A DNA stretch of 59,601 bases, filler included, from Nemertoderma westbladi (taxonomy: Eukaryota; Animalia; Xenacoelomorpha): the NCBI GenBank assembly GCA_032718475.1. It is 2 parts of 2 records of this genome, joined end to end, with 100 filler letters (N's around TTAATTAATTAA, not from the genome) between each part and the next. Parts side by side here need not be neighbours in the genome. Positions count along the whole stretch, not along the records: positions 30,675 to 59,601 come from JAUCBJ010008024.1; 1 more part is not named here. One strand, given 5' to 3'. This document shows positions 1-53,412 of this stretch, in pieces. Numbering within the stretch: the stretch's first letter is position 1; the number at the start of each line of letters is the position of its first letter. A program made the translations under genes and the position numbers. Under the pieces are notes generated by a model. The model searched no databases and was not told where the DNA came from. It saw nothing but the letters and a program-made list of their open reading frames with translations.

Positions 1-49
1 AATTGGAGTAGGCAGCGACGCTCGCTAGCCTGAATATAAACTCCTTATA

Positions 50-1360
50 ATGTGGATAAACTCATATATAGCAGACATGACGGAGTTGATGGAAGATGTT
101 CTTGGTATCGGGGAGCGATATACTCTACTTTTGCAAGCGTTTGTTGATAGCTTAATACGCGGCGACGTTAGTCCAACTGCTGCGGAGGACGATGGTCGTT
201 ATATCGAACCGCCAATGTCCCAAGAGCAGCTCACGCGTGAGTTGGACTATAGAAAATTCGCTGCTCGATATACGCGGCGTAATGGTATGTATATGGGCTT
301 CTTAACTACTGGTCATCCTATCGATTTACACAATACGGACTATGTCGACTATATATCCTGCCCAGCGGAGTCGGAACCATAAACGGAAATTCGAATGCGA
401 AAATTCTATTCGAAATCGACTCGAAAGAAAAGACACTTAAGAAACAAATGGACGCGGTAACTCCAAAGTATATTTGGAATTCTTGATAGAAGCATTGTAA
501 CAACAAATAAATGTCACCCGCGTTTACCCTACCAGACGTGCGTCTTTGGTATTATTACGATAAAAGCCCTAGACCCAAATAATAAACGGAAAGACATAAA
601 CATCCATGTAAACCGAAACTTGTTGACGTATCACCTATGCTCACTCGGCTCGAACGATCCTGGAGTAAACCTACGATCAGAGTCCCGGAATACTCGGTCA
701 AACCTCCTCATTCCTTAGTTGGACCTCAGACCTGCGATCCTGGTGGTGTCGCGGATCCTCGCGGACGGTATTCACTGTTCAAGATCTAGTGCTACCCTAA
801 CAATTAATCGGTAACACTCCGACAGTGATTTCTAGCTAGCCGCCCATCTTACCTAGCTGGATTATGACGCAGACACCTAATATCATTATCCAATCGTATG
901 GTCGTCCCGTTTAACGCGATACAACCCTTCATCAAGGTGAAGGAGAGCGTTGTACGAAACGAGTTAAACGCTATTCTATAAAGATCAAAAAGGAAACCTG
1001 CGTTTGTTCAGATAAACGTAAGTTATAACAGTAAGTCCAATCGATAAACGAATTGGCCTTATCTCAATTCGATTGGGAAATCCAGAATCTCTAAGAAGTT
1101 ATCGAACTTGGACGATCCTATTCTCTGCGAGAGTTTTTGGATGAACGTATCCAGCTACGAGCGGAGGAAAATCAGCTCGAGGAGAAGCATATCGAAACGG
1201 CAGATACCCCGACCACAATCCTACACCTTCTGATGCAATCATATTGCACCCTTCACCCAGGAGTTATGGCCCTCCTAGTAAAGTGGCTCCCCCCAAAGAG
1301 AAAAAGACTCTTGCTAGCCTCAAAAAACTGCGTAAACGCCGTCTGCGTAAGAAAGACTAA
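50..1360 (+). pseudogene. Degenerate 3' accessory ORF (ORF2) of a BEL/Pao-like LTR element
   Basis: N-terminus MTELMEDVLGIGERYTL...PPMSQEQLTRE is nearly the same as the ORF at 49983. C-terminal frame PSDAIILHPSPRSY...KKLRKRRLRKKD* matches 51139-51272. The middle has stops and is not alignable to the other copy. Confidence 0.7.
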
Positions 1361-1438
1361 CTGTTTAGAGTATCTTTATGTTTTAGAAACTGTGATTTTT
1401 ATATTTTATAGACTGAAAATCCCATTTTCTGGGAGCGG

Positions 1439-2667
1439 TGTAAAAGCTTTTACTGAATTGTCCGGTTATTTTTCCTTATTTTTCCCGTAAAGTACTCTGT
1501 AGTTGGTTTACCAGGCATAAAAAGGCCGTGTCCTTGCTGTACTGGTGTTTTAGCGGACATAAGAGCTATTTCTTCTGTATTTGTACTTTAGAGGACATAA
1601 TCCGTAATTCCGTGACGTAAAAGCACGATACTCTTGAAAACAGTGTCGCTACCATGACGACGGCTAGCAGCTGATATTGCCACGTCGACGTTTCTTTGTT
1701 TCTCTGTTCTCTCGTTGTTCAGGTTGACCAATCAGAGCGTTTGTTATCTCTGTGTTGGAGGTATATACAGAAACTCAGTAGTTCAGTGTTATTGTTTTTG
1801 TCCAGAGCCTAAGAACCGGCTTTGGCACCTCCGTGTTTTAGTTTTTAGTCTTACACTAGTAGGTTTAATTATAAAGGGCATATATCCTTTAACGCACCTA
1901 CCTGACTCATGGAATCACTGCATACTGATGACTGATGTCTGCATACTGCAGTACTGCATACACTGCATACTGTGTAACATTGTGCATACCTTTATATTGT
2001 TATACTGCTATTTACCGTCAGTTCTTCATAATATGGTTGATGAATAATTATATTTGGAATAACGATAAACAACCCCGAAACCCAATGTTCTTGATATACC
2101 GAAGGTAAGAGAGAAGGGTTACAGATAAACGATTGTGACTTATGTTAAAGTGGTTTGAAGTGAATCTAATGTTATTTGATAGACCCTACATGAGCCAGTC
2201 TGTGTTCCTTATATATGTGACTAAAATCAGTGAAGATCGGCAGATTAGTGTGCAGTATTGTGCAGCATTGTGTATGAGTGAGTCTGTTAAAGAAGCATTC
2301 CTAAAGAATGCGCCATATATGTGAATTATAATTAAGCCATATCGTTGTGAGTGGTTTAAGTCATAACTCTGTTTATATAGATAAAGCGCCACGTCCTAAA
2401 GGAACTGTTAATATTCCCGAAGGTGAATAATATTGTCAGAGATTATATAATACTGTCAGTCGAATAATACATTAGGCTTACATAGCAATAAAATTAAACC
2501 GTCGAACCCAATCTCCCGGGAATTTCCAGCGGGTGAATGGTCGCGCACGGATTGGTTTCGACTAGTGTAGTGAATCAAATACTTGTCATAGACTAAAAAC
2601 TGATTTAATATCTAGAAGACATCTTAATTTGGTGGGTTAAACTGCCAAAGGTCTGAAAGCGCGAACA
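1439..2667 (+). mobile_element. 3' LTR of a BEL/Pao-like element related to the one at 40275-52579
   Basis: Starts TGTAAAAGC after CCCATTTTCTGGGAGCGG and ends GCGCGAACA, the same termini and ~1230-bp length as the LTRs at 40275 and 51351. Shares an identical 39-nt block (2377-2415 = 41182-41220). Confidence 0.88.
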
Positions 2668-18170: not shown

Positions 18171-19398
18171 GGCTGATAGACAGGTTTCGCCCCAGAGATG
18201 CGGTGGACTTTCAGAAGCTAAACTGATGTTTAGGATGCACGAGTTTCAAATGGAGAAGTATCAGGCATTATCGAAATAGGAGGTGGTGGAGCCACTATCT
18301 CAGTTAGCTACCGTGTTTTGGGCTCGTCATGATGTGGTTGTGTGCAGTGCAGTGATGCGCTGCTGTTCACTGGCATTCTTGGTCGCCCCATCCTGGTGCT
18401 GTCTAACGCGTTCTATTGGCTGGTTTTTCCAACATATTTCCCTTGCAAGACGGACCAGAGATGAATAAACAAAGTTAGAAGCAAGTCCAGGACTGGGTGA
18501 ATTAAAGGTGAGAACGATTGTGACGCAGTTTCGATCTTATAAAGACATGCCGAACTGGCGGTGTGCAGCAAGACTTGAGAATGAGGAATTCGAACTTACA
18601 GATAATCTGTCTGTGACTATCAGCATCAGGGTCAACCGTGTCAATGACATCGATGGGTTTGACCGCCGGTGGCACCTCTGTGTCAATAACACTGTTTGTC
18701 ATTGAGTTAGTTAACTACGCCACTACCTCCTAGTTTATTAGTGCCCGTTTCTTCTCCATTTGGAATTTATCACCTGACACCTTAAATAGCACTTAGCTTC
18801 TATATAATATATATAAAGCCCCCCTCTGAGACGAGACCTACTGGACAGCTGACCCCCATCAGATTATCACTAATTGCATCAACTAATCTGGTCACAGTTG
18901 TTCTTTAGTTTGCTTTTTAACAACTTAGAATTGCTTGCCAGTAGGTGCAATTTGCCTAACAAACATCACCTATTTCAGAAGGAAGTGTTTTTCGAAAACG
19001 AGAAAAAGTCTTCAAACATTTCACTCGTAAGTGCCACAACAACTATTTACAAAATTATTCAAATTGGCCTAAATTTATAATCTTGTTACAGCTGTTAATT
19101 TACTTCCGGCGATCCCAAAGATTGTAAAGGCAACTTCCGGTTCTGCAGATTTAGTCGCTACTAACGAACATTCGTCGACCCACCGCCGCCATTCAACGCA
19201 GGTCCGTGAACGCATCCCGACAAACGAACAGTTAACCACTTTCGAGGATTTACTAAACCAAAAGTACGAGGTCATGTCTCCACTCAATATCTACACAAAA
19301 AGTCTCATATGGTTACATTCAACAGCCATGAAAGGTTCCTCCAATGAAAACGAAGAAACTCGATATCTAAGAATTTATAAGCCTCAGCAAAGGCAATT

Positions 19399-20465
19399 AG
19401 AAGTTCGGAGTAGTTGGGGTAGGAACGTGTACAGTAAAACTCACCAGTATTAGTTGGAGTTGTAGAAGTTCGGTGTAGTTGGGGTAGGAACGTGTACAGT
19501 AAAACTCACCAGTATTAGTTGGAGATGTAGAAGTTCGGAGTAGTTGGGGTAGGAACGTCTACAGTAAAACTCACCAGTATTAGTTGGAGTTGTAGAAGTT
19601 CGGTGTAGTTGGGGTAGGAACGTGTACAGTAAAACTCACCAGTATTAGTTGGAGATGTAGAAGTTCGGTGTAGTTGGGGTAGGAACGTGTACAGTAAAAC
19701 TCACCAGTATTAGTTGGAGATGTAGAAGTTCGGTGTAGTTGGGGTAGGAACGTGTACAGTAAAACTCACCAGTATTAGTTGGAGTTGTAGAAGTTCGGAG
19801 TAGTTGGGGTAGGAACGTGTACAGTAAAACTCACCAGTATTAGTTGGAGATGTAGAAGTTCGGTGTAGTTGGGGTAGGAACGTGTACAGTAAAACTCACC
19901 AGTATTAGTTGGAGTTGTAGAAGTTCGGTGTAGTTGGGGTAGGAACGTGTGCAGTAAAACTCACCAGTATTAGTTGGAGTTGTAGAAGTTCGGTGTAGTT
20001 GGGGTAGGAACGTGTACAGTAAAACTCACCAGTATTAGTTGGAGTTGTAGAAGTTCGGTGTAGTTGGGGTAGGAACGTGTACAGTAAAACTCACCAGTAT
20101 TAGTTGGAGTTGTAGAAGTTCGGTGTAGTTGGGGTAGGAACGTGTACAGTAAAACTCACCAGTATTAGTTGGAGTTGTAGAAGTTCGGTGTAGTTGGGGT
20201 AGGAACGTGTACAGTAAAACTCACCAGTATTAGTTGGAGTTGTAGAAGTTCGGAGTAGTTGGGGTAGGAACGTGTACAGTAAAACTCACCAGTATTAGTT
20301 GGAGATGTAGAAGTTCGGAGTAGTTGGGGTAGGAACGTGTACAGTAAAACTCACCAGTATTAGTTGGAGTTGTAGAAGTTCGGAGTAGTTGGGGTAGGAA
20401 CGTGTACAGTAAAACTCACCAGTATTAGTTGGAGTTGTAGAAGTTCGGAGTAGTTGGGGTAGGAA
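19399..20465. repeat. 65-bp satellite, left block (~16 copies)
   Basis: Unit GTAGAAGTTCGGAGTAGTTGGGGTAGGAACGTGTACAGTAAAACTCACCAGTATTAGTTGGAGTT. Confidence 0.97.
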
Positions 20466-22267
20466 CAGGCCCGTATCGTGCGGGGGGGCTTTGGGGGCAC
20501 TGCCCCCCCAGAGAAGTCCCACTGCCCCCCCAGACATGTATTGTTCACTCGTCTTGTTCACAGTTAATTAATAATAATATTGTTGGTAATCAATATTATT
20601 GGATTCACCTACTCCTGCCCACTGACCTGACCTGACTCCCCACCATTCCATTTGGTCCAATTCCTATAATACTACACGACATTAATATACCTACCTACCG
20701 TAATAATTTCTAAAAATACATACAATAATTCATGCAAGTGTAATCTTGAAAGCAAAATAAGCAAAATCTAAGCAGATGCCCTTGATCACTTTACACCAGC
20801 CTAGAGGCGGGCTTGAAAACTGCAGTCGATTTAAACCTTGTGCTCTCTTTGAGGTCATTTTTGACCCATCGAAGATTTAAACTTACACAATTTTATCACA
20901 CATTGATATTTTATCTCGAAATTTTGTGACATTTATTATTTTACAGTACTTCTCAATTAGAAAAACAAAGATGTAAAAATTTGCAAGGGGGTCTATTCAA
21001 TTTTACAATTTATAGGGGCCTACACATCGTGTTTTGTACCTGTACCATTCAATATCAACAAAAAACTTTTTTGATTTCAACTCAGTTCTCAAATCAGATG
21101 TCATCAAATGGGCCCAAACTTAGAAAGATACCAAAATTTTGATTTGGGGAGGACAGTAAATATTCCAACAGGCACATGGCCAGTTCCTGCCCTTGGCACA
21201 AGTGAGTCATATTCCCAATTTTGTGATGATCCACTTCTAGTATTCCTACTGCATTGATATTATGCTCATTTAGAACCGCAATGACCGATTAAGTTGTTGT
21301 AGACACCTTCAAAACAAGCATAAAGCGAATAGTTTTTGAGATATTTGTCAGGTATTTGTCAATATCGCATCAAGGCGCTAATTTTGACTTGTGCCGGACT
21401 TAACATTATCTGCAATATCTCAAAAACTATTCGCTCTATGCTTGTTTGGAAGGTGTCTAAATCTGTCATTGCGGTTCTATTGATCATAAATATCAATGCA
21501 GTAGGAACAATAGAAGTTGATCATCACAAAAATGGGGAATATGACTCACTTGCACTAAGGGCGGGTACTGGCCATGTGCCTGTGGGAATATTTCCTGTCA
21601 TCCCCAAATCAAAATTTTGGTATCTATCGAAGTTTGGGCTCATTTGATGACATCTGATGTGCAAACTCAGTTTAAATTCGACAAAAAAATTTTTGGACCA
21701 CCCCAACCCTCTCATTTACCTGAGGTCAAAATTGAACTCAAAGGAATCATCTGTTTGAGAAACGAAGGGGTACAAAAGGGTTAAGACCACAGAAAAAGTT
21801 TAAATGACACAGCTAATGGTCGAGTACAATTCTGCCAAGTTTCAGGTTAAACGGATTGAAAGCAAATAAATGGGAGGACATTTAATGTTTAGACATGTAG
21901 CCATCTAGCGGGAAACTGTTGAACTGTTGGGGTCAAAAGTCGCTAAATAATGTCAAGTTTTGGACATATTTATGCCTACAAATTTTTAATTCGACAGCTT
22001 TAAATAAATTCTGCCTTATATGAATGTCAAATTAGTTACGTCAACAACTATTTGCCATTATTGACAATCTCCTTAACAGTGTCAATTCGCCAAGGTTCTG
22101 CCAACTTCGTGGCTCGCCCCACACACCTTTCAACAAAATATTGATTTTACTTTATGTACTAAATTAACTCTCACTTTGTTGTATGCTCCCCAAATCCCAG
22201 TTATGGGTTTTGCCCCCCCAGATTTGGCCTCTGCCCCCCCAGATATTATGATCACCATACGGGCCTG
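20466..22267. mobile_element. Non-autonomous hAT-type DNA transposon inserted in the satellite
   Basis: TIR CAGGCCCGTAT...ATACGGGCCTG; exact 8-bp TSD GGTAGGAA (20458-20465 and 22268-22275); subterminal GCCCCCCCAGA motifs. Confidence 0.92.
20835..21780. mobile_element. TTAA-flanked (piggyBac-type) MITE nested in the hAT element
   Basis: TTAA|ACCTTGTGC...TACAAAAGGG|TTAA; internal ~250-bp inverted arms (~21095-21350 vs ~21415-21660). Confidence 0.7.
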
Positions 22268-25200
22268 GGTAGGAACGTGTACAGTAAAACTCACCAGTAT
22301 TAGTTGGAGTTGTAGAAGTTCGGAGTAGTTGGGGTAGGAACGTCTACAGTAAAACTCACCAGTATTAGTTGGAGATGTAGAAGTTCGGTGTAGTTGGGGT
22401 AGGAACGTGTACAGTAAAACTCACCAGTATTAGTTGGAGTTGTAGAAGTTCGGAGTAGTTGGGGTAGGAACGTCTACAGTAAAACTCACCAGTATTAGTT
22501 GGAGTTGTAGAAGTTCGGAGTAGTTGGGGTAGGAACGTGTACAGTAAAACTCACCAGTATTAGTTGGAGTTGTAGAAGTTCGGAGTAGTTGGGGTAGGAA
22601 CGTCTACAGTAAAACTCACCAGTATTAGTTGGAGTTGTAGAAGTTCGGAGTAGTTGGGGTAGGAACGTGTACAGTAAAACTCACCAGTATTAGTTGGAGT
22701 TGTAAAAGTTCGGAGTAGTTGGGGTAGGAACGTCTACAGTAAAACTCACCAGTATTAGTTGGAGTTGTAGAAGTTCGGAGTAGTTGGGGTAGGAACGTGT
22801 ACAGTAAAACTCACCAGTATTAGTTGGAGTTGTAGAAGTTCGGTGTAGTTGGGGTAGGAACGTGTACAGTAAAACTCACCAGTATTAGTTGGAGTTGTAG
22901 AAGTTCGGAGTAGTTGGGGTAGGAACGTGTACAGTAAAACTCACCAGTATTAGTTGGAGTTGTAGAAGTTCGGAGTAGTTGGGGTAGGAACGTCTACAGT
23001 AAAACTCACCAGTATTAGTTGGAGTTGTAGAAGTTCGGAGTAGTTGGGGTAGGAACGTGTACAGTAAAACTCACCAGTATTAGTTGGAGTTGTAGAAGTT
23101 CGGAGTAGTTGGGGTAGGAACGTCTACAGTAAAACTCACGAGTATTAGTTGGAGTTGTAGAAGTTCGGAGTAGTTGGGGTAGGAACGTCTACAGTAAAAC
23201 TCACCAGTATTAGTTGGAGATGTAGAAGTTCGGAGTAGTTGGGGTAGGAACGTGTACTGTAAAACTCACCAGTATTAGTTGGAGTTGTAGAAGTTCGGAG
23301 TAGTTGGGGTAGGAACGTGTACAGTAAAACTCACCAGTATTAGTTGGAGTTGTAGAAGTTCGGAGTAGTTGGGGTAGGAACGTGTGCAGTAAAACTCACC
23401 AGTATTAGTTGGAGTTATAGAAGTTCGGAGTAGTTGGGGTAGGAACGTGTACAGTAAAACTCACCAGTATTAGTTGGAGATGTAGAAGTTCGGAGTAGTT
23501 GGGGTAGGAACGTGTACAGTAAAACTCACCAGTATTAGTTGGAGTTGTAGAAGTTGGGGTAGGAACGTGTGCAGTAAAACTCACCAGTATTAGTTGGAGT
23601 TGTAGAAGTTGGGGTAGGAACGTGTGCAGTAAAACTCACCAGTATTAGTTGGAGTTGTAGAAGTTCGGAGTAGTTGGGGTAGGAACGTGTACAGTAAAAC
23701 TCACCAGTATTAGTTGGAGTTGTAGAAGTTGGGGTAGGAACGTGTGCAGTAAAACTCACCAGTATTAGTTGGAGTTGTAGAAGTTGGGGTAGGAACGTGT
23801 GCAGTAAAACTCACCAGTATTAGTTGGAGTTGTAGAAGTTCGGTGTAGTTGGGGTAGGAACGTGTACAGTAAAACTCACCAGTATTAGTTGGAGATGTAG
23901 AAGTTCGGAGTAGTTGGGGTAGGAACGTCTACAGTAAAACTCACCAGTATTAGTTGGAGTTGTAGAAGTTGGGGTAGGAACGTGTACAGTAAAACTCACC
24001 AGTATTAGTTGGAGTTGTAGAAGTTCGGAGTAGTTGGGGTAGGAACGTGTACAGTAAAACTCACCAGTATTAGTTGGAGTTGTAGAAGTTCGGAGTAGTT
24101 GGGGTAGGAACGTGTACAGTAAAACTCACCAGTATTAGTTGGAGTTGTAGAAGTTCGGAGTAGTTGGGGTAGGAACGTCTACAGTAAAACTCACCAGTAT
24201 TAGTTGGAGTTGTAGAAGTTGGGGTAGGAACGTGTACAGTAAAACTCACCAGTATTAGTTGGAGTTGTAGAAGTTCGGAGTAGTTGGGGTAGGAACGTGT
24301 ACAGTAAAACTCACCAGTATTAGTTGGAGTTGTAGAAGTTCGGAGTAGTTGGGGTAGGAACGTGTACAGTAAAACTCACCAGTATTAGTTGGAGTTGTAG
24401 AAGTTCGGAGTAGTTGGGGTAGGAACGTGTACAGTAAAACTCACCAGTATTAGTTGGAGTTGTAGAAGTTCGGAGTAGTTGGGGTAGGAACGTGTACAGT
24501 AAAACTCACCAGTATTAGTTGGAGTTGTAGAAGTTGGGGTAGGAACGTGTACAGTAAAACTCACCAGTATTAGTTGGAGTTGTAGAAGTTCGGTGTAGTT
24601 GGGGTAGGAACGTGTACAGTAAAACTCACCAGTATTAGTTGGAGTTGTAGAAGTTCGGAGTAGTTGGGGTAGGAACGTCTACAGTAAAACTCACCAGTAT
24701 TAGTTGGAGTTGTAGAAGTTCGGTGTAGTTGGGGTAGGAACGTCTACAGTAAAACTCACCAGTATTAGTTGGAGTTGTAGAAGTTCGGTGTAGTTGGGGT
24801 AGGAACGTGTACAGTAAAACTCACCAGTATTAGTTGGAGTTGTAGAAGTTCGGAGTAGTTGGGGTAGGAACGTGTACAGTAAAACTCACCAGTATTAGTT
24901 GGAGTTGTAGAAGTTGGGGTAGGAACGTGTACAGTAAAACTCACCAGTATTAGTTGGAGTTGTAGAAGTTCGGAGTAGTTGGGGTAGGAACGTGTACAGT
25001 AAAACTCACCAGTATTAGTTGGAGTTGTAGAAGTTCGGAGTAGTTGGGGTAGGAACGTGTACAGTAAAACTCACCAGTATTAGTTGGAGTTGTAGAAGTT
25101 CGGAGTAGTTGGGGTAGGAACGTGTACAGTAAAACTCACCAGTATTAGTTGGAGATGTAGAAGTTTGGAGTAGTTGGGGTAGGAACGTGTACAGTAAAAC

Positions 25201-39939: not shown

Positions 39940-40274
39940 ATTATTCGTAAACAAGAAATGGTAAGAGTCATTTTTTGGATCATTTTCCCTATGTAATCTT
40001 TCCAATTTAGCTCGTTATCAATGTTCACTCCCAGATATTTTACTGATGGAGATTGTGGAATAGGTTCAGGGCAGCCTACATTTAATTTTATGGATGAGAA
40101 GTCAGCTCTATTTTCTGGGCTGATTTGCTTCGGAGATAAAAGGAGAAATTCCGTTTTGTCTGGGTTCAGTTTCAAATGAGAATCATTAAATATTTTTTGA
40201 ATTTTCTGAACATTCGACTCTAACAATTTTGTAGCTTGTTCTGGATCTGAGTCAGCCACATAAATAACTGTATC
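39940..40274 (-). mobile_element. CR1/L2-type LINE RT, part downstream of the LTR insertion
   Basis: DTVIYVADSD...LKLNPDKTEFLL...VKYLGVNIDNELNW; continues the frame of 52580-53412. Confidence 0.88.
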
Positions 40275-41504
40275 TGTAAAAGCTTTTGTGGGATAACTGA
40301 TACGTTTGCCTTTGCTGGCCAGTTCTCCCCCAGGCGCTGGAATACTCTAAAAAGGTTTTCTAACTGTATATATATTCCCCTCGCCCGCAAGGTACCTTTA
40401 CAGGTGTTTTAACGGACATAAAAATCATTCTGCTATATACGTGTTTTAGCGGACATGGTAAGACAAAAAACTTGTAATGCACCAACCACCTTTCACAGCT
40501 TAGCCGTGATGATTCATATTACGACATCTAGCAGCTGGTTGCTGACATGGAAACAGCCATTGGACGCGTGGTTCTTTGTTTGGCTTGGGCCAATCAGGGC
40601 GGTTTTTCCTGTCGACGTGTAGCTTTTCTGCCGATCATAAGGAGAGTGTTCAGTCTTACTGTTTTTTCTTGATACTTTGTTGTTATTGCTGTCTAAGCCA
40701 GAAACACCGGCATTTTTGGATAGATACTGCTGTACCGTAAACTGCTTGAATTATCGAAAGTATAAACTGTTACCTAATCTCACGAATCGAATATCACCTA
40801 ACTCATTAATCATATTGTTTGTACTGTTATTTTACCGTCAGTTATTAATTGTAAATATTTGTTGATGGAAATATTGCTATTTGGATAATACGGATAAATC
40901 ACCCAATTCCCAATTTTCTTGATAACACTACAGGTTAGAGAGACCGGCTATACATAACAATTGCGATTTATATTAATGTGGTGTGTATTGAATCCAATGT
41001 TATTTAGCAGACCCTACGTGAGTCAATTACTGCTCTCTTTATGTGTGATCAAATGTACTGACTGTCGGCAGAATAGTGTGTATGATTGTGATTGGTAACA
41101 AAGTATTTCCTAAAGAATACGTTTTATACTTTAATCATAAGCAGTATCGTTGCGTTTAGTATAAGTCTTAGTTCTGTTTAAATAGATAAAGCGCCACGTC
41201 CTAAAGGAACTGTTAATATTTCCCGAAAGCCAATAATATCTGTCAGAGATTAATTATTAACGATCTATCGAATAATACATTAGGTATACACTGCAACCTT
41301 ACACTGTAATAATACAATTCAAGCATCCGAATTCAGTCTCCCGGGTGTAGATCCATCGGGTGAATGATCGCGCATGGGCTGACTTCGGCTAATGTTTTGC
41401 GTATTAGCATAAATTATTGTCGTATGCTAAAGTGGTTTTAATTAACTAAAAGACATATAAATTTTGGCAGGTTAAACTGCTAAAGGTCTTCGAAAGCGCG
41501 AACA
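40275..41504 (+). repeat. 5' LTR
   Basis: TGTAAAAGC...GCGCGAACA. About six substitutions and one 1-bp indel versus the 3' LTR, counted by eye. CCAAT at ~40590, Inr-like TTCAGT at ~40649, donor-like AG|GTTAG at 40934. Confidence 0.95.
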
Positions 41505-43757
41505 GTAACAGTTTATAATCTTATTGCAGTAGGCAATAAGGTTGCAAGTGTAGGCATTAAATACAGTAAAATACTGTTCTGTCGAACAGTAACAGTTTAC
41601 AATCTTATTGCAGTAGGCAATAAGGTTGCAAAATACCGTAGTGATCGGTAAAACTGAACCGGTACTTTGTAGGTCAGTAGGCCTAACTGTCATCACCGGT
41701 ACCGGTACTGCTGTACAAGTACATTTAGTATTATTCGATTTGATTATTGTATACCGGTAGGCTGTTTAAGAGATTAGGGACTGTACACCCCTTGTTTCTT
41801 TTGGAGCTTACTTATTTCTGTCAGTTTTATTTCCTAGTAAGTTAATATTGAGCTGAAGACGTGTAAGTCTGCTCAGATTGTTCAGATAATTGTAGGCTGA
41901 GCTGCTGTCTGACTGTGGTTGGGTTTGGAGAGATTACGGCGTGTGTAGAGTTTGTCTGATAAAGTGCCGTTAGTAAGTTGGGGCAGTCATAATTGTAAGG
42001 TCAATCCCCTCTTAAAGAGTAAGTCGTACTACCGTGTTAGCACGCATACTAACTAACAGTTTCAGAGTCTGCATATACCGTAGTTTATTTAGGCTTGATC
42101 GTAGTCTGCCAGTGTTTTGGCCTGTGTTTGTTTGTGTGGTCTGTTCAGGTACCGTAATAGTTATTACTCAAATATTTGTAGGCTGGATTGTTGTCTAGCT
42201 ATTTTTAGGTCTGAAGGGATTGCTGCGTGTGTAGAGTTGGTCTGATCAAGTGCCGTTAGTGAGTTGGGGCAGTCAACACTGTAAGGTCAATCCCCTCTTA
42301 AAGAGTAAGTCGTACTACCGTGTTAGCACGCATACTAACTAACAGTTTCAGAATCTGCACATACAGTAGTTGGTTTAGGCTTGATAGTAGTCTGCCAGCG
42401 TTTGGTTTGTATTTGTTTGAGTATTCTGTACGGGTAGCGTAATATTTATTATTCAGAGTTTATGCGATTATTCGCAACATTCATGTCCCCAAGTTTATTC
42501 CTACAGTAATTGTGCTTGTTATACATACCGTTATAGTTAAACTAACCCCGGTACTACATCAGGGCTGCTTGGCGTAGGTAAAGACTGACGACTTTGTGCT
42601 TCGGTCACTCCAGCAGATGCCGTGGTTCTTTTAACTGTTCAAGTATATTTAACTACTGATTATTTGTTATACCGGTACTTGTACCTAATTTAGGGTTTAG
42701 AGTACAGTGCCTTCCGAAGTAATTAGTGTAGGCAGTATATTTGTGTTGTAAAGTGGTTGATAGGCACATTCGTTAGCTCTATTAGCTTCTGGGTAGGAAC
42801 AATCCGTGATACATAACGTAGTACCTATAGCGATACGGTTATAGGTCGTCAGGCGGTGGTATTTTCCTATCTGGACAGTACAATATATTTACTACTACTT
42901 ATTATTTAAATACCGTAGTACCCTGTCCTTTGTAATAGCCAGAAATCTAACCCTTTGTTGGACTGGTTTGTAGACTTCCTGTAAAATTACCCTAAAAATT
43001 CGTACGTCATATTTTGTTGTGTTTAATTAGAGAATTAATCTCACCCGTATCGTAAGTAATTTGTAGTATTAAGTAACTTAGGTAAATTAGAATTATCAGT
43101 TTTAGTGTCAAATAAATAGCACTTCACTGAGAGCGCTCAGCTTCTGTGTAGTGACCCCCAGAAATAATAACATTTATTTCAAATATTGACAAAAAACCCA
43201 TATAAACGGGTATATAAATATTATAAATCAAATCAAACGATTTATAAATAGTAGGCCTGCCATACAACAACTAGGTCTTACTATCAGTTGGACTACTGCT
43301 TAAATAACGGTAATAAAGTAAGTTAAAGTAACTAAGTAACCCTAAAATATTCAGGAATTCAATTATTCTAAAAATAATTGACATACCGGTACTCACTATA
43401 GGCTTATTATATTTATTTCTATAAATTTGAGCTGAAATCATACCGGTACTCTGTAATTAATTCTAGTCCAGAATTATACTTATATACTATAAGTGTAAGC
43501 TGTATACCGGTATTCATTATAGGCCTACTATATATATATATATTTGTGCTAAAATTATACCGGTACTCTGTGACAAATCTAGTCTGTAATAACACTTATA
43601 TATTATAAGCATACCGGTATTCTAATATATTGTATATATATCACGTTCCACTGAGTAACGGTACCGGTAATAAATCGCTAGGCTTGCGGTCATACTGAAT
43701 TACTAGATTTGCTTTAACTGAAATTATAGTAGTAGACATTCAACTGTATAACTAAAC

Positions 43758-46700
43758 ATGTCTGACACTCAGCAAAACCTGTCGGACAGTCTGATCGAGA
43801 CCACTATCTGTGATTCAGATAGGAGTGTGGAGCGAATAAAAGAGAAGTTCGGCTCACCTCCTACTGTAAAAAAGGTCATCCCTCCAGTAGTATCAGACCC
43901 TAGGCTAGTCCACCATAGGTCCATCATAGGCACTCGGGCACAGGTAAAACGGGACCAAGAGGCAGCTGTCCTATCGCAGCAACATCTTGGTCAAGAACCT
44001 ACTTCCCAGAGACCGGATAGCTCCAGCAGTTCGGATACTGTAGAGTTGACTCCCGAACATGGAGTGCAGATGGCTGATACAGTCTACTCGGACCCCCTTC
44101 TTACTCTTCCTGCTGCAGTGCTGACTACTATACTCATTGCGGTGGAAGAACATCAAACCGACTGGGCGAAGAATAAGCAAGCGACCCAAGATAATTACGC
44201 GGGATACGCCAGGGAAGAATTGAGATCTATTGTTGAATCACAATGGAACTTTCCCGGACTCGGACTTCCGTTTGATATGTCCGAGGCTACTTGGGAAGAT
44301 ATACACAGGATGGGAGTGGCAAAAGATACAATGGATCCAGCTGTTTGGAAGAGGTCGGCAGCAGGATATGTGCAGGGATTCTTCGGATCCTTGGAGCGAT
44401 TGGAGGAACAACTGTTTCGACAACCTCACGGACCTCAAGAGCAGGAAGAACTGCTATATCAAATACGCGAAAGAACCCTACGCATTCGACTAATCCTCTC
44501 AGCCTTTGAGGAAACTTCCAAAAGAAGACAGGACACGTCGCTGCAGGTTGCTGTCAAAACTTGGCTACATCGAGTAGATCTCAAAGTACAGGAAACAGCC
44601 CCGTGGAAATCCCAGCTGGCTGAGAGATCAATCTATGAGGAACCGACTGATGTCTCCGAACAAACTGATGTCACCCTTGCTCAAGAGGAAAGCGAAGAGG
44701 CCGCCGAGAAACCGCGAACTAGAGACGCTATCGACATTTATTTGTCCGACTATCAGCGATTCCTAGGAGACGAAGAGTTGAGGAGACGGCTACATGGACT
44801 TTCCCCTAATAGTGAAGGAACCAAGCTTATATTGGACGCGATCGATACCGAAATGTTAGCTGCAAACCAAGCTGAATGTGATGAAAAACTCCGTCTCACT
44901 AGAGTCCGAGAAGAACAAATAAAGAAAAGAAGGATAGAGGAACAAAAGGCGGCGGCTACGGCAGAAGCAGAAGCAGAAAGAAAGGCAGCGGCGGCAGAAG
45001 TAGAAGCAGAAAGAATAGCAAAAACAAAGGCAGCGGCGGCAGAAGCAAAAGCGGAAAGGGCAGTGGCCGAAGCAGAACGGAGAGCCTCTGAGCAGACTAC
45101 CCAACTGGAGTTGGAAAATCTGCAAGAGACACAAGACAGTATAAATAAACAGTTTACTGCTAATCAAATGCAGATGATGAGAAAATCTACCCCCAAGCGC
45201 CAGGGGTACACCTCATCGGAGGAAGGTGATACTACCGATCCTGAAGGCGGAGGAAATAGATCTCATCTAAGTAGGCGTAGAAAAACATATTACCGTCGTA
45301 AATTGCCTGATTTGCCCCCAGCTGTTAAAAGACAGCTAACTAGCACAAATTTAGGTAGTGCAGAACCCATAGAACAATTTATCCAGGTCAAAAGACTCCC
45401 TACTATAGTCGATGAACCTGAAATAATTAGGCCTGTAGTTCCCAAAGTCACTTCTGTGCTAGAGACCCCTACACTTCCAGAGCTTAACTCTAAATTCCCT
45501 TTACATAGCACTACACTGCCTGTACCCGGTGGAACAGTCCATTCAAATACCCCTGTCCAGATAGCAGAGAGAGAAATCAATAATTTGTCTCCCGTCGTCC
45601 CGCGTCAGCCCGCTACTATGTTGGCGACTCCCGCTTCGGCGGTTGAGTGGGTGGAGGAGGGACGGCGGGGGATGAATCTCCTGTTAGGACAGATGCAGGA
45701 GACTGTCCACCAACTTAAGGGAACAGTGAGGGAAGGTAGAGCAGAGTTGCAAGAAGTGCAGCAAAGTATCGCGCTAGAACGCGACAAATTGGTCAATATG
45801 CAAAAGGGCATACCAATACCCCCTGTAACATTGTGTCAACCTGTTAGGTCTGAAGTATTACATGCGCAAGGTGTGGAGCCTACACGCATCTATACTGCTA
45901 GTGAAGTTGAAACTCCTATAGCAAACCCTATTAAGGGTGATTATAGACCTGTTATTAATGATATTCCCTATAGACCTGATAATGATCCGAGAAATTTATA
46001 TACCGATAATTCGATATTAAATAACACGATGGTCCAAGAAAGCTTTACGCGTCAGATGGCTAGAACAGAAGCCCGCCAAGCGGTCAAAGTGGGAGAGATC
46101 GTCAAATTCAATGGAGATGAGATGAAATGGTTACCTTTCAACGAATATTACAAAGATAGCATACAGAACTCTGTACTATCTAATGGAGAGAAACTTAGAT
46201 TCCTCATCAAGTGCTTGGAAGGACCTCCCAAGTTAATGGCGTTAAAGTTTATTGGACATCCAGATGGATTAAGACAAGTTTGGGATACATTAAACATCAG
46301 GTATGGTAACAAGGATAACATAGCTAAGTATTTGTATGCAAAATTAGTAGCCCCCCGACACTTCCTTAGTAGCGGGATTATAGAATTTTCCGATGAAATT
46401 CAAGAGATCTGTAGACAACTGGACTGGTTAGGTAAGTCGCATGAATATCAGAGTTCCATGGTCATTGGAGCCGTAGTCTCTACTTTACCAAAGGGTGGAG
46501 TATGTACGCGCTGGGACAAGAAAGTGTTGTACATGAATGAACAACAACGACGAAGTCCTACCATGGCTGATCTCATGTCCCTCTTAGATAGTGAAGTAAA
46601 ATTACAACTCATAAGGCAGTCCAGAGAGAAAACATCGGAAAATAAGGTAAGTGAGAAACCCGTTTCTAGGAGAAGGATAATACCAGTGTGCTACACTGAC

Positions 46701-48365
46701 GACGGCGAAAGCCAAGCTTCTCAAGAAGAGGACAGCGGGAAAGACACCGAACGATCTTACTATGACAACAAGACCTATAAAGACGTAAGTAAATACAAGT
46801 CTCGAACCAGTGACAGGAGAGAACAGGTAACAACAACTCCTCCTACGTCTCCTAAGAGAATTCACGGAAGAAAGCCCGAAGAAAGAACGAGAGTGCAGAA
46901 CGTTAACCAAGTTAAGGTGAGTAACATCAAACCAAAATGTGCGCTGTGCGACGGGCCCCACCGTTTGAGTGCGTGTGCAGAATTCCTAAAGAAATCCATG
47001 GCAGATAGACGTGGAGTCCTGTGGGATAAGCGGTTATGTTATAACTGTCTCAGACGCGGACACCAGCGGCGAACCTGTTACTCTGACGCAAAGTGTGCAA
47101 AGTGTGGCGCGAAACATCACATTTTGTTACACAGTGAGTTCGAACGAGACAACCCGAGTCAGGTAAGTGCGCCCGAACTACATGTCCAATTCAGTGATGT
47201 GAACGACACTGACCAAGGTTCTGAGTGGGAAGGATTCTATACAGACGAATTCTCCGATGCCAACGAATCCTGTTATCTAATAAATACCACAGTGTATCGA
47301 GCACTTACGGATGAAAAGGACACTGACGAGTTTACTCCAACTCCTTTTGACAAACAACCATCTTGGAAAGTTCCAACTTCCAACATAGGAATAAGAGAAT
47401 TTCCTGTAGTGCAAGTTCGAGTTCATGGTCCCAACAAGAGTTACATAGTGAACGCCCTACTTGACTCCGGCAGCACAGGAACATTCATCGATCAAGAACT
47501 AGCCGAAGATATCTTTGCTGGACAACCCAAGTTCCGGACTAAATTGAATATGTCAGGAATTATACAGGTTTGGAAATCTACCATAACGGCAGATTACTAT
47601 GTAGGTGCGTTGTCCACCCCCCAGGATAAATTAGGAGCACAAAGTATAAGGTCAGTAAAAATGGTGGCTATAAAGAACTTTGCTACTACTCAAGCAGAAC
47701 CTTATAACTGGGACGAGGACGAGTGCATCCAACATCTTGAGATACCTCGATTCCAAACCGATTATCCTGGAGTGCAAATACTCATCGGCCAAAACGCGCA
47801 TGAGGCGCTCGAGCCATTAGAGAAACGGCCTGCTCAACCACAGCCACTACAAACCTATGCGGTAAGAACTAGAGTAGGTTGGTACTTCACTGGCCCTTCC
47901 CGTAGAACTCTCAAAGAGAGATTCCCTCAACAACAGGTATACCAAGTAAAGGGGGAAGTGGAGAGCAGTGATGTGGACGACCCAACTGAGGGAACACCAT
48001 ACTCCTCAGATAATGACGATATTAACTCCAATGTAGATCAATGGAGACATTGCCTTGGGACGATTAATCCAGCCGACATCGCTTCCAGAGGAGCAACTCC
48101 TCAAGAACTGATAGATACTCCAGGCTGGTTAGGTGGATCCGACTCCTTAAGTAAAGAAGAAGAAGAATGGCCTCCTCATCTTACCACGGCAGAAATTAGA
48201 CAGGCCAAGGGAGCGGAGAAAGTAACACAACAACTCAATCGCCCAGCTAGTCGTTTATGTTTACTGGAAAGAGACCGAAAACTGTCCGAAAACTATGGAA
48301 GGCAAGATACTCTTCCTACGACTACTTCCCTAATCCGGCAAATATCTAGGGACTCCATAACGTGA
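43758..48365 (+). CDS. BEL/Pao Gag-protease polyprotein with RT, most of RNase H and most of integrase deleted in frame
   Basis: DUF1759-like KFNGD..W..F...EKLRFLIKCLEG; three BEL knuckles CALCDGPHRLSAC, CYNCLRRGHQRRTC, CAKCGAKHHILLH; protease ALLDSGS; then jumps to the RNase H end (QWRH...NPADIASRG...WP) and the integrase tail (RPASRLCLLE). No YxDD. Confidence 0.93.
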   Translation: MSDTQQNLSDSLIETTICDSDRSVERIKEKFGSPPTVKKVIPPVVSDPRLVHHRSIIGTRAQVKRDQEAAVLSQQHLGQEPTSQRPDSSSSSDTVELTPEHGVQMADTVYSDPLLTLPAAVLTTILIAVEEHQTDWAKNKQATQDNYAGYAREELRSIVESQWNFPGLGLPFDMSEATWEDIHRMGVAKDTMDPAVWKRSAAGYVQGFFGSLERLEEQLFRQPHGPQEQEELLYQIRERTLRIRLILSAFEETSKRRQDTSLQVAVKTWLHRVDLKVQETAPWKSQLAERSIYEEPTDVSEQTDVTLAQEESEEAAEKPRTRDAIDIYLSDYQRFLGDEELRRRLHGLSPNSEGTKLILDAIDTEMLAANQAECDEKLRLTRVREEQIKKRRIEEQKAAATAEAEAERKAAAAEVEAERIAKTKAAAAEAKAERAVAEAERRASEQTTQLELENLQETQDSINKQFTANQMQMMRKSTPKRQGYTSSEEGDTTDPEGGGNRSHLSRRRKTYYRRKLPDLPPAVKRQLTSTNLGSAEPIEQFIQVKRLPTIVDEPEIIRPVVPKVTSVLETPTLPELNSKFPLHSTTLPVPGGTVHSNTPVQIAEREINNLSPVVPRQPATMLATPASAVEWVEEGRRGMNLLLGQMQETVHQLKGTVREGRAELQEVQQSIALERDKLVNMQKGIPIPPVTLCQPVRSEVLHAQGVEPTRIYTASEVETPIANPIKGDYRPVINDIPYRPDNDPRNLYTDNSILNNTMVQESFTRQMARTEARQAVKVGEIVKFNGDEMKWLPFNEYYKDSIQNSVLSNGEKLRFLIKCLEGPPKLMALKFIGHPDGLRQVWDTLNIRYGNKDNIAKYLYAKLVAPRHFLSSGIIEFSDEIQEICRQLDWLGKSHEYQSSMVIGAVVSTLPKGGVCTRWDKKVLYMNEQQRRSPTMADLMSLLDSEVKLQLIRQSREKTSENKVSEKPVSRRRIIPVCYTDDGESQASQEEDSGKDTERSYYDNKTYKDVSKYKSRTSDRREQVTTTPPTSPKRIHGRKPEERTRVQNVNQVKVSNIKPKCALCDGPHRLSACAEFLKKSMADRRGVLWDKRLCYNCLRRGHQRRTCYSDAKCAKCGAKHHILLHSEFERDNPSQVSAPELHVQFSDVNDTDQGSEWEGFYTDEFSDANESCYLINTTVYRALTDEKDTDEFTPTPFDKQPSWKVPTSNIGIREFPVVQVRVHGPNKSYIVNALLDSGSTGTFIDQELAEDIFAGQPKFRTKLNMSGIIQVWKSTITADYYVGALSTPQDKLGAQSIRSVKMVAIKNFATTQAEPYNWDEDECIQHLEIPRFQTDYPGVQILIGQNAHEALEPLEKRPAQPQPLQTYAVRTRVGWYFTGPSRRTLKERFPQQQVYQVKGEVESSDVDDPTEGTPYSSDNDDINSNVDQWRHCLGTINPADIASRGATPQELIDTPGWLGGSDSLSKEEEEWPPHLTTAEIRQAKGAEKVTQQLNRPASRLCLLERDRKLSENYGRQDTLPTTTSLIRQISRDSIT

Positions 48366-49982
48366 TCACATTTGGAGTGGGTGTATGACTATATTATTTT
48401 ATCTATTTTATTACATTTTATATGCGAACTTTATTATGTACTTTATTATAATCGTTTTATTTAATTTTATTTAGTAAAATGTTATTTTAGAATGTTTAGT
48501 AGATTAGTGCAATATATTAGTGTTTATTACGTACATAATTACTTATAATATATATTTAGTGCGACGGCAAGAAGTAATTATTTTCTCTTTCCTTACTGTC
48601 CGTATTATATTATAAATGCGAGACTATAGTAAGATGACATGTCAGTACTTCTTAAAGTACAATAAAGCCACTACTATATTTAAGTATTATTGGTAGGCAG
48701 AGTATTAGGAATGCAAAGTTCAGATCCTCGTGTCTCGGCTAAACCAAGCTCTGGGTAGACCTTGGAAACGACTTGCCTCTTCACACTGACATTGCTTCGT
48801 GCGATATTGCTCTTCTACCTTATAACAAATAATACATATAGTAGCGTGATGTCCCTCTAACAGTAGCGTCAATCGCAAATAAATCTGTTAAACTTTTTGA
48901 CCATCTGTAATTCTAGTCGATTAAGATATCGTGGCACCCACCGATATACTTGAAAGACAAATTCTAGAATCAGTGGTTAACGTCCCCAGACAAGTTCTGG
49001 AATAAATTGGTGCCCATCCTAGATATTAATTTAATATTTATTAAAATCTTTAAAATTCAGATCCGTTAACAATTCTAGTCGATTAAGATATCGTAGCACT
49101 TACCGATACTCTTAAAAGACAAATTTCATAGAATTGAGGATCTTATGTCCCCAGATATGCTCTGGAATAAAATTTGTGTCAATTTAACATCAAATAATAA
49201 AATTCACGGGAATAAATTTAAATTCATATTCAAATGAATTTCATAAATTGTCATTTTGTGCAATTTATAACATTCCCAAAATTCCAGTAATTAATAGATC
49301 ATGGGAGCGGAGATTCATATTGAGTGTATTAGAGTGTGAGAATCTCCAACATATAGTCAATAGCCGATAAAATTTATAAAATCATGCATAAAGAGGATAT
49401 TGACAATTAAAGAATTACTATTAAATAACATCCCAGATCTGTATGCATGAGAATTACCCTAATTCTACCGCTAGTTTTCCATAATGTCACCATGGCAACA
49501 CCCACGCTAGAATTAGAAGCAAGTTAAAGTAACAATAAAAGGCTTGCCCATTGCGTAGCATAAGAGTATACATAGCGCTATTAGTATCCAAGGATACATA
49601 GTAAATACGTGACATTCTGGAAGACACTGACTAACGGACAAATGGCATGCATGTGTGCAGTAAGTAATGATTGTATGGAATTTGTGCGTTTATAGGTGAA
49701 TGTTACTACTAAAGTGTGTTTACAGTAGCTAATCGCAATTGTAAAATAGCCCTAACTCTACCGAGATAACCTCAAGTGGATTCAAGCCTTTGGGACGGAC
49801 AGTGGTGGGACTTGTGCCGGTTATCGTTGTCGTGCTGTGCTACATGTTGGCGTAAACACTGCGACAGCGGTACATCGGCGCTGAGAAACCCACTGTCCGG
49901 GGGCAAAAGGCCTAGTAGGAAGCGACGCCCGCTTACCTAAAATATTAACTTATATTGATATTAACAAACTCAGATAGCAGAT

Positions 49983-51272
49983 ATGACGGAATTGATAGAA
50001 GATGACCTTGGTATTAGAGAGCGATATACTCTACCTTTACAAGCGTTTGTGGATAGCTTGATACGCGGTGAAGCTGATCCGACTATTACGGAGGACGATG
50101 GTCGCTATATCGAACCGCCGATGTCCCAGGAACAACTTACGCGCGAAGCGGACTATAGAAAATTCACCGCTCGCTATACGAATCGTAATGGTACGTATAT
50201 GGACTTCTTAACTACCGGCCATCCTACCGATTTACATGATACGGACGATGTAGACACCGAAAGGGAAATGGTTCTATTTAAATATCATACCCAGCGGCGT
50301 CGTAACGATAAACCGAGAATAGATCACGAAAATTCTATTCGTAACAGACTGGGAAGACGAACCAATATGTCTGGAATCTGAAGAGATTCAGCCTATCGCG
50401 CTCGGAACAACGACAACGATTACATCCTAGAATGGTATCAAGGTCCACAGTGTCTCACTGCGTACGATTATCGCCATGCCAACTATGTTTCTCGGCAACG
50501 TTGTCGGTTATGCGCATCGAGAGACCATGTTACGCCCATGGACACAAACGTCCGCTGTTCCTATTTCCACGAACAACCGGCGATGGAAATTTATTGCGCG
50601 TATTGCAGATTTAATAATTTGCATATTTTTGCGGTTTGCCCTCAATTTATGACTCAATGTCACCACTGTCAACTAAAGGGACACGCCAGTTTCGATTGCC
50701 CTTTTTAATCGCGATTTGGAAAGCGTAGATGAAATGATCACACTACGTTACATTAGAGCTTGGGAAGCGAACGCTGATTTACATCGTGATTCGCGCCATC
50801 GCTATTATCCTGGACGCGCTTACGAAGGAATTTATGCGTTCCATCCTTATCTATTCGCTTCTGTCGAACAGAAATCACGCATATCGAGTTACAGGAAGTA
50901 TATCGACGGCCTTACGAGTACCAAGCCCGCGAACGCGAGTGGGAAAGAACCATTAAACCAAGGAAGTTTCTAACTGCCTATGGTCCACCCACGGCCCTCG
51001 TTCAGACCACTCGTAAAGGACCCGTAAGAGCGGCTGTCTTGAAACGAGCTCTCAAAGCCGTTAGACCCCTCTCCCCGGACGTTGATGTCAATCAACCCAG
51101 TACTTCGACCGGCGGATATACCGATCGCAATCTCATACCTTCTGATGCAATCATATTGCACCCTTCACCCAGGAGTTATAGCCCTCCTCGTAAAGTGGCT
51201 CGCCCCAAAGAGAAAAGGACTCTTGCTAGCTTTAAAAAGCTGCGTAAACGCCGTCCGCGCAAGAAAGACTAA
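49983..51272 (+). pseudogene. Accessory ORF2 (~430 codons; one in-frame stop, two inferred frameshifts) with zinc knuckles and a basic C-terminus
   Basis: Reading through TGA 50379 gives CRLCASRDH..., CAYCRFNNLHIFAVC and CHHCQLKGHASFDC; ends KKLRKRRPRKKD. Ends are conserved with 50-1360. Confidence 0.7.
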
Positions 51273-51350
51273 CTGTTTAGAGTATTTTTATATTTTAGAA
51301 ACTGTGATTTTGTATATTTTATAGACTTAAATCCCATTTTCTGGGAGCAG

Positions 51351-52579
51351 TGTAAAAGCTTTTGTGGGATAACTGATACGTTTGCCTTTGCTGGCCAGTT
51401 CTCCCCCAGGCGCTGGAATACTCTAAAAAGGTTTTCTAACTGTATATATATTCCCCTCGCCCGCAAGGTACCTTTACAGGTGTTTTAACGGACATAAAAA
51501 TCATTCTGCTATATACGTGTTTTAGTGGACATGGTAAGACAAAAAACTTGTAATGCACCAACCACCTTTCACAGCTTAGCCGTGATGATTCATATTACGA
51601 CATCTAGCAGCTGGTTGCTGACATGGAAACAGCCATTGGACGCGTGGTTCTTTGTTTGGCTTGGGCCAATCAGGGCGGTTTTTCCTGTCGACGTGTAGCT
51701 TTTCTGCTGATGATAAGGAGAGTGTTCAGTCTTACTGTTTTTTCTTGATACTTTGTTGTTATTGCTGTCTAAGCCAGAAACACCGGCATTTTGGATAGAT
51801 ACTGCTGTACCGTAAACTGCTTGAATTATCGAAAGTATAAACTGTTACCTAATCTCACGAATCGAATATCACCTAACTCATTAATCATACTGTTTGTACT
51901 GTTATTTTACCGTCAGTTATTAATTGTAAATATTTGTTGATGGAAATATTGCTATTTGGATAATACGGATAAATCACCCAATTCCCAATTTTCTTGATAA
52001 CACTACAGGTTAGAGAGACCGGTTATACATAACAATTGCGATTTATATTAATGTGGTGTGTATTGAATCCAATGTTATTTAGCAGACCCTACGTGAGTCA
52101 ATTACTGCTCTCTTTATGTGTGATCAAATGTACTGACTGTCGGCAGAATAGTGTGTATGATTGTGATTGGTAACAAAGTATTTCCTAAAGAATACGTTTT
52201 ATACTTTAATCATAAGCAGTATCGTTGCGTTTAGTATAAGTCTTAGTTCTGTTTAAATAGATAAAGCGCCACGTCCTAAAGGAACTGTTAATATTTCCCG
52301 AAAGCCAATAATATCTGTCAGAGATTAATTATTAACGATCTATCGAATAATACATTAGGTATACACTGCAACCTTACACTGTAATAATACAATTCAAGCA
52401 TCCGAATTCAGTCTCCCGGGTGTAGATCCATCGGGTGAATGATCGCGCATGGGCTGACTTCGGCTAATGTTTTGCGTATTAGCATAAATTATTGTCGTAT
52501 GCTAAAGTGGTTTTAATTAACTAAAAGACATATAAATTTTGGCAGGTTAAACTGCTAAAAGTCTTCGAAAGCGCGAACA
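51351..52579 (+). repeat. 3' LTR
   Basis: Near-identical to 40275-41504; preceded by short purine-rich GGGAGCAG (PPT candidate). Confidence 0.95.
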
Positions 52580-53412
52580 GTATCATCAGCATACTGTATA
52601 ATTGAAACATTTGTCAGTTGTTCTGGAATGTTATTGGTATATAGCATGAATAATAGAGGCCCTAAAATGGTACCTTGGGGAACGCTCCTTGTTTCAGTTA
52701 GCCAATCAGAAAAAGTATTTTCTACTTTAACACGTTGCTTCCTTTTCAATAGGTAATTTTGTATGAGGTTCAGTGCAGTCGAGTGGAAGCCTAAATGTTT
52801 GAGTCTGTGATTCAAAATGTCATGATTTATAGAGTTGAAAGCTTTGCTTAGGTCTAAAAATGCGGCTGCGACAAATTTGTTGTCATTCAAATGTTGACGC
52901 CAATTCTCAGTTAAGTAAGTAACAGCATCAACAGTAGAAAATCCTTTTCGGAAACCAAATTGTTTTCGGTTTAAAAGCTTATTATCTTTGACATATTCAA
53001 GTATTTGAGAACACATAATTTTTTCAACAACTTTGGCAAAAGGAGACGTTATTGCAACTGGTCTGTAGTTCGCAGCATCAAATAGATCACCTTTTTTATA
53101 AATTGGAGAAATATTCGACAATTTTAGATGGTCTGGGAATAAAGATTTCGTCAAACATTGATTTATTAGAAAATGCAACGGCCCCGAAATGTGAGATCGA
53201 ATTTCCCTTATTATTTTTGTAGGTATTTTACAAGGTCCAGAGGACTTATTTTCATTTAATTGATCAATTCTATAGTCTACTTCTAATAGACTCACGCATT
53301 TAAATGAAAAATGAGCTCGGTTTTGTACGGAGTCGACTGGTAGGGTATAAATGCCCATATTGGTCGACGAGCAATTAAAAAAGTTCCCTAAATTTAGAAA
53401 AGTTTCATTCAA
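52580..53412 (-). mobile_element. CR1/L2-type LINE RT, part upstream of the LTR insertion
   Basis: PIYKKGD..NYRPVAI, QFGFRKGFST, FLDLSKAFNSINH, VPQGTILGPLLF, QYADDT. Confidence 0.92.

Follow-up and report, generated by a model that had tools for sequence, protein, structure and literature searches.

A BEL/Pao element in the genome of the xenacoelomorph Nemertoderma westbladi carries, directly after its 5′ LTR, a 13-nt sequence exactly complementary to a segment of that same LTR. The preliminary description of this DNA had read this as tRNA-independent priming in a BEL/Pao lineage, which is still the best reading, as other BEL/Pao loci show the same layout with different letters. The element probably primes itself in a manner resembling that of Tf1, with an internal primer that would end ~120 nt from the likely transcription start site.

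Identity of the element and its candidate primer site

The element occupies positions 40275-52579 (12.3 kb) of the window, that is, of the whole stretch of DNA analysed (59,601 nucleotides). It is bounded by two 5-bp copies of GTATC and its LTRs are 99.4% identical. Its features and those of a relative at the start of the window are the following (a slash marks a predicted cut):

1-2667 (+): 3′ end of a related element with 3′ LTR at 1439-2667; its primer site lies outside the window
40270-40274 (+): left target-site duplication GTATC (flanking repeat)
40275-41504 (+): 5′ LTR, 1230 nt, termini TG...CA; differs from the 3′ LTR at 7 positions
40648-40666 (+): Inr-like GTTCAGT and T-rich run, both conserved in the diverged relative (1783-1800)
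40737-40775 (+): LTR block with high depth and no listed substitutions in host runs; depth falls directly after it
40761-40773 (+): candidate self-primer TATAAACTGTTAC; the next base is C40774 and the predicted cut AC/C
41505-41517 (+): candidate primer-binding site of non-tRNA type, GTAACAGTTTATA, zero spacer after the LTR
41583-41631 (+): tandem duplicate of LTR end, site and hairpin
43758-48365 (+): 1535-aa open frame, BEL/Pao Gag-protease
49983-50708 (+): additional frame split into pieces of 132 aa and 108 aa, start common to the relative
51343-51350 (+): short purine tract GGGAGCAG, abutting the 3′ LTR
51351-52579 (+): 3′ LTR, 1229 nt, with the second copy of the 13-mer at 51836-51848
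52580-52584 (+): right target-site duplication GTATC

The 1535-aa frame contains a DUF1759 domain (PF03564, E 8e-12) and three Cys-His boxes, and an aspartic protease motif is visible in its translation. At its end, ~50 aa resemble the end of RNase H, reaching 52% identity with BEL proteins, and are followed, in the expected order, by a terminal integrase motif, whereas RT and the integrase core are absent from the element. The homologs of the protein are BEL/Pao proteins with 23-39% identity, 11 of 12 of which contain PF03564. No close protein relative was found among 1.84 billion representatives, the best matches having ~25-40% identity, and neither viral contigs searched with the protein nor viral contigs and metagenomes searched with LTR-derived DNA patterns yielded any match. 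The element shares with the Belpaoviridae the DUF1759 Gag, the three Cys-His boxes, the protease, the RNase H and integrase end motifs, the short (5-bp) target duplication and the TG...CA LTRs, and it has a purine tract before its 3′ LTR, as expected of BEL/Pao. Unlike the family as described by the ICTV (PMC8742986), it is 12.3 kb long and has neither RT nor integrase core nor the 18-nt site complementary to a tRNA 3′ end. From this gene content, it is a non-autonomous BEL/Pao derivative and, since RT is missing, it needs an autonomous partner. The insertion, to judge by the near-identity of its LTRs, is recent and the element young.

The Gag-protease frame has remained open through two large pol deletions, with the integrase terminal motif still at its end, which suggests that the lineage was kept for making its own Gag. 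The extra frame before the 3′ LTR is divided by one stop, and its start recurs in the relative (77-382); its first piece (132 aa) has no Pfam match and its second (108 aa) is Cys/His-rich, with a weak zinc-knuckle match (E 0.0035).

The 5′ LTR ends in ...GCGCGAACA at 41504. GTA follows both LTR copies and the LTR end is therefore set by the target duplication GTATC on both sides, not by the repeat. The next 13 nt do not begin with TGG and match the reverse complement of both 40761-40773 and its 3′ LTR copy at every base (13/13, offset 0); pairing stops at the LTR boundary, where the next base is mismatched on both sides. The observation in the preliminary description is confirmed. A site next to the 5′ LTR and complementary to the element's own LTR is what characterises Tf1/sushi elements. 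The 13-mer has no further occurrence elsewhere in the window and, among ~9800 internal start positions, a 13-nt match is attained at 41505 only. When offsets of 0-5 from the LTR end were allowed, matches of at least 13 nt arose by chance in 5, 5, 20 and 10 of 4000 LTR shuffles keeping 2-, 3-, 4- and 5-letter content, respectively. The segment 40761-40773 is also the strongest duplex partner of the site in the LTR (-15.5 kcal/mol, against -9.8 for the next one). The LTR edge itself is duplicated, a feature absent from the preliminary description, as is the lack of RT and integrase core: 41499-41547 and 41583-41631 are alike at 48/49 positions, and the second copy has an 11-nt match to the primer at 41589-41599.

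Other BEL/Pao loci and host copies

When public metagenomes were scanned with 24 aligned homologs, the best 80 of the 568 matches in the portion covered yielded 79 loci. Of these, 37 extend at least 379 nt upstream of the matched region and were used; 40 were set aside because their flank was too short and 2 because they match the integrase end alone. To call a site, all CA/TA ends were tried, with a site starting GT or AT. Matches of 11-15 nt across a splice junction (LTR exon-exon) were found in 11 of the 37 loci versus 17 of 1332 cross-locus controls (Fisher p ~2e-11, a guide only as the loci are related). Contiguous 11-nt matches, present in 3/37 loci versus 67/1332 controls, were not above chance when taken alone. 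The other loci comprised one splice-built match and two contiguous ones of 10 nt, three TGG-type tRNA sites (L039, L046 and L068, with self-matches below 6 nt) and 17 loci, many of them cut short, with no site of either kind.

The end was fixed by both LTR copies in seven loci. Three of them are the TGG-type loci and one, L008, is ambiguous; L001 has a contiguous 11-nt match present in both of its two 74%-alike LTRs, and L009 and L012 match solely across a GTAAG...TAG/CAG junction, over 15 and 12 nt. These fixed-end matches, found without the GT/AT filter, all begin with GT or AT. In 11 of 13 families, a C comes directly after the predicted primer, compared with 60 of 252 control matches (24%), and the focal primer end, TGTTAC/C, conforms to this pattern. 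Six loci read ...ACA^GT at the LTR edge (^) with zero spacer, as does the focal element. The splice-built L022 and L023 and their sister L029, whose match is contiguous, have GCTGAAC/C in common; the next four paired letters differ between them on both sides, with pairing kept. A splice-built primer was also sought in the focal LTR, where only weak donors or 2-nt extensions were found, and the distance from primer to LTR end is 78-216 nt in 11 other loci versus 731 nt in the focal element. The recurrence of the layout with different letters supports, independently of the focal element, tRNA-independent priming as the reading of these sequences.

In a quick tree of 40 gag-protease rows, which left out loci lacking a long enough single frame (e.g., L012), the focal protein sits on a long branch (3.74) and, without a firm position, does not join the self-matching elements. 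One locus, L070 (position 249), has a 14-nt splice-junction match, yet groups in this tree with the TGG-type L039 and L046 (support 95); the priming mode may thus have switched more than once.

Six public host runs contain the stretch, none of them recorded as RNA, and four were aligned, as contigs. The focal family is very abundant in them (very high summed depth) and variable. In one run (X1), summed depth is 118-135k at 40716-40736, ~420-510k at 40744-40771 and 16-27k at 40779-40815. In the alignment, which spanned 40625-40815, no substitutions at or above 1% are listed for 40726-40775, and downstream indels start immediately after 40773. From the lack of listed substitutions, the fall in depth and the indels past 40773, the 13-mer is the last part of a shared block. 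The drop after 40778, located near the end of the aligned stretch, may reflect an indel private to the focal subfamily; it exceeds the effect that the left edge shows, and the same bin is low in another alignment of the host runs too.

None of the variant post-LTR sequences among the rows listed in these runs starts with TGG. The compensatory change within the focal family for which the preliminary description had proposed to look was not seen: a variant post-LTR site had no mirrored LTR variant among the listed host-run differences, and no stretch of at least 10 nt in the LTR of the relative (1439-2667) matches the focal site or any of four variant sites.

Putative priming mechanism and its alternatives

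Transcription likely starts near 40652, to judge from the Inr-like motif, whose TTCAGT places an A at that position, 109 nt before the 13-mer, in agreement with the ~110 nt of the preliminary description. The predicted primer end would lie at +122 and the primer would be internal, as the caveat in that description anticipated, ending ~120 nt inside the predicted transcript. In the RNA, 40761-40773 would anneal to 41505-41517 and a cut would be made after C40773 (AC/C), most likely by the RNase H of the autonomous partner's RT, as in Tf1, from which RNase H is reported as the primer-releasing nuclease (PMC5341516). The resulting ~120-nt capped 5′ fragment would prime minus-strand synthesis at the U5 end; strong-stop DNA would end at 40774 and then jump to the RNA 3′ end, so that this 3′ end would have to run slightly past 51848. 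TATAAA, with a GT-rich run following at a distance of 50 nt, would be compatible with a poly(A) site shortly past that position. The sequence upstream of the cut would be copied from the 3′ LTR. Alternatively, a second RNA could provide the primer fragment in trans, which would avoid the long loop. The recent movement of the element (7 LTR differences, very high depth in host runs) implies that some primer worked at the LTR edge. After splicing, TATA and primer end lie 147 nt apart in L012 and 148 nt apart in L009, which fits a primer ending ~120 nt from the start, as in the focal element (122), since it gives ~+118 if transcription is assumed to start ~30 nt after TATA.

Folding predictions were less favourable to this pairing. 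In the ensemble predicted for the 1009-nt leader, the 13-bp helix has a probability of ~0 and can be imposed only at a cost of 5.6 kcal/mol, although such prediction is unreliable across a distance of 731 nt. A search by folding for convincing pretzel flanks gave irregular flanking duplexes only, and we dropped a pairing of Tf1 type between the LTR/site junction and the bases that follow the Inr, as it has 8 bp and crosses the LTR end. A candidate intron, 40934-41185, has splice-like ends in both LTRs and, when it is kept unpaired, the helix reaches a probability of 0.89. We rejected it as support for the helix: 8 of 16 sliding 252-nt blocks have the same effect, no such joint is listed in the host runs, and progeny copies would lack an intron spliced out of the template on the downstream side of the primer.

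According to PMC10085805, PMC4600332 and PMC5341516, the Tf1/sushi and Tcn1 groups have no tRNA site, and what follows directly after their 5′ LTR can pair with part of the LTR transcript. The focal post-LTR site pairs with its own LTR as in Tf1/Tf2 of Schizosaccharomyces pombe, Tj1, Tf1/sushi and Tcn1. In the Tf1 type, however, priming is by the extreme 5′ terminus of the mRNA, held in a three-duplex 'pretzel', whereas the focal primer is predicted to end ~120 nt inside the transcript and 731 nt from its site; the distance from the Inr-like motif, where transcription is predicted to start, argues against a primer at the transcript start. Moreover, the Tf1 group consists of Ty3/gypsy chromoviruses, whereas the focal proteins are BEL/Pao, with no chromodomain integrase. 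The element is therefore no member of the Tf1 group and we consider it likely that it works like one. For the TAR lineage of plant Ty1/copia elements (Houba, Osr-1), PMC6317226 predicts self-priming from an LTR match of at least 10 nt beginning 0-5 nt after the LTR. The focal element has such a match, but the TAR lineage belongs to another superfamily and kingdom, and self-priming is there, in that text, a prediction only.

For the Belpaoviridae, the ICTV gives priming by host tRNA-Arg or tRNA-Gly at the 18-nt site, and describes replication as poorly understood (PMC8742986). Bivalve TRIMs without a clear site are reported in PMC6934838. The terms PBS and tRNA are absent from the main text of three BEL/Pao surveys (PMC3118150, PMC554778 and PMC6238403), and we found no description of a self-priming BEL/Pao element in the literature searched, which lay mostly outside subscription journals and Repbase, where an earlier remark is possible.

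Among the alternatives to self-priming, the one that survives best, though we regard it as improbable, holds that the pairing is real but regulatory, hiding TATAAA (a poly(A)-signal variant or a TATA box) or aiding packaging or dimerisation, with priming achieved otherwise. The 13-mer does start with TATAAA and is followed by a GT-rich run (40813-40832), as after a poly(A) site; the conserved LTR block would fit any function, and the loop is long (731 nt). On the other hand, what the predicted primers of the other loci have in common is not TATAAA but an AY/C end and a position at the LTR edge. In addition, the focal LTR edge offers no alternative primer site, and the pairing halts precisely at the LTR boundary. 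Slightly less probable again is priming at 41505 by a host tRNA fragment or small RNA, the LTR match being due to chance or a by-product. Half-tRNA priming is known in some Ty1/copia lineages (PMC6317226), but the focal site lacks TGG, ARAGORN found no tRNA gene in the window, and an Rfam search gave one chance-level match and no tRNA-like piece in window or element. The motifs searched are also absent among the tRNA 12-mers listed in the available portion of the PMC13524379 supplements, and the sites vary freely between families, each tracking its own LTR, a freedom incompatible with a fixed host RNA. Finally, loss of a normal tRNA site in a defective lineage, with a 13-nt match arisen by chance or by an inverted copying error, is very improbable: the element is indeed deleted elsewhere, its LTR edge is duplicated, ACTGT/ACAGT words are common in it and p is only 0.001-0.005 before counting the features examined, but the clean target duplication indicates insertion after the site took its present form (unless changed later), the variant sites listed in host runs have no TGG either, and the AC/C end with zero spacer recurs in unrelated families.

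Returning to self-priming, we lean slightly towards a broader proposal, in which a large share of the BEL/Pao elements of aquatic animals would have dropped tRNA priming in favour of a ~120-nt capped primer from their own leader, with a shared AC/C cut. Many families would splice an LTR intron to build the pairing end, and the focal element would be an intron-free form, using a 731-nt loop or acting in trans. Self-priming in the focal element would by itself extend the mechanism to a third LTR superfamily and with a different geometry (an internal, long primer, spliced in relatives), and such BEL/Pao elements would presumably be freed from tRNA supply and from tRNA-fragment silencing. It would also account for the failure of tRNA-based annotation to locate a site in these elements. 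For the focal element, self-priming predicts exact RNA ends at 40773/40774.

The relative and the remainder of the window

The LTR of the relative is 71% alike to the focal one over the 3′ half. The register adopted for it in the preliminary description, with GTTAAAGGATATA as the site, is doubtful. The analogous primer end is more likely 1901, because of its AC/C pattern, its distance of 115 nt from the Inr-like motif and the similar downstream sequence; this would predict a site beginning GTAGGTGCGTT.

The last 255 nt before the two 3′ LTRs (1198-1451 and 51110-51363) are 91% alike, compared with 71-76% for neighbouring sequence, a pattern which likely reflects a mosaic produced by recombination between subfamilies. 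A 39-nt block, 41182-41220, is identical in the focal LTR and that of the relative, which are otherwise 71% alike. It follows an acceptor-like ATAG and contains an 8-nt complement of the site; in host runs X1 and X3 its depth is 2-4 times that of the adjacent sequence, and in X5 the excess is larger. Elsewhere in the window, arrays of a 65-nt satellite (>100 copies) extend over 19279-23300 and beyond, and several broken LINE-type elements together with inverted-repeat elements occupy the remaining sequence.
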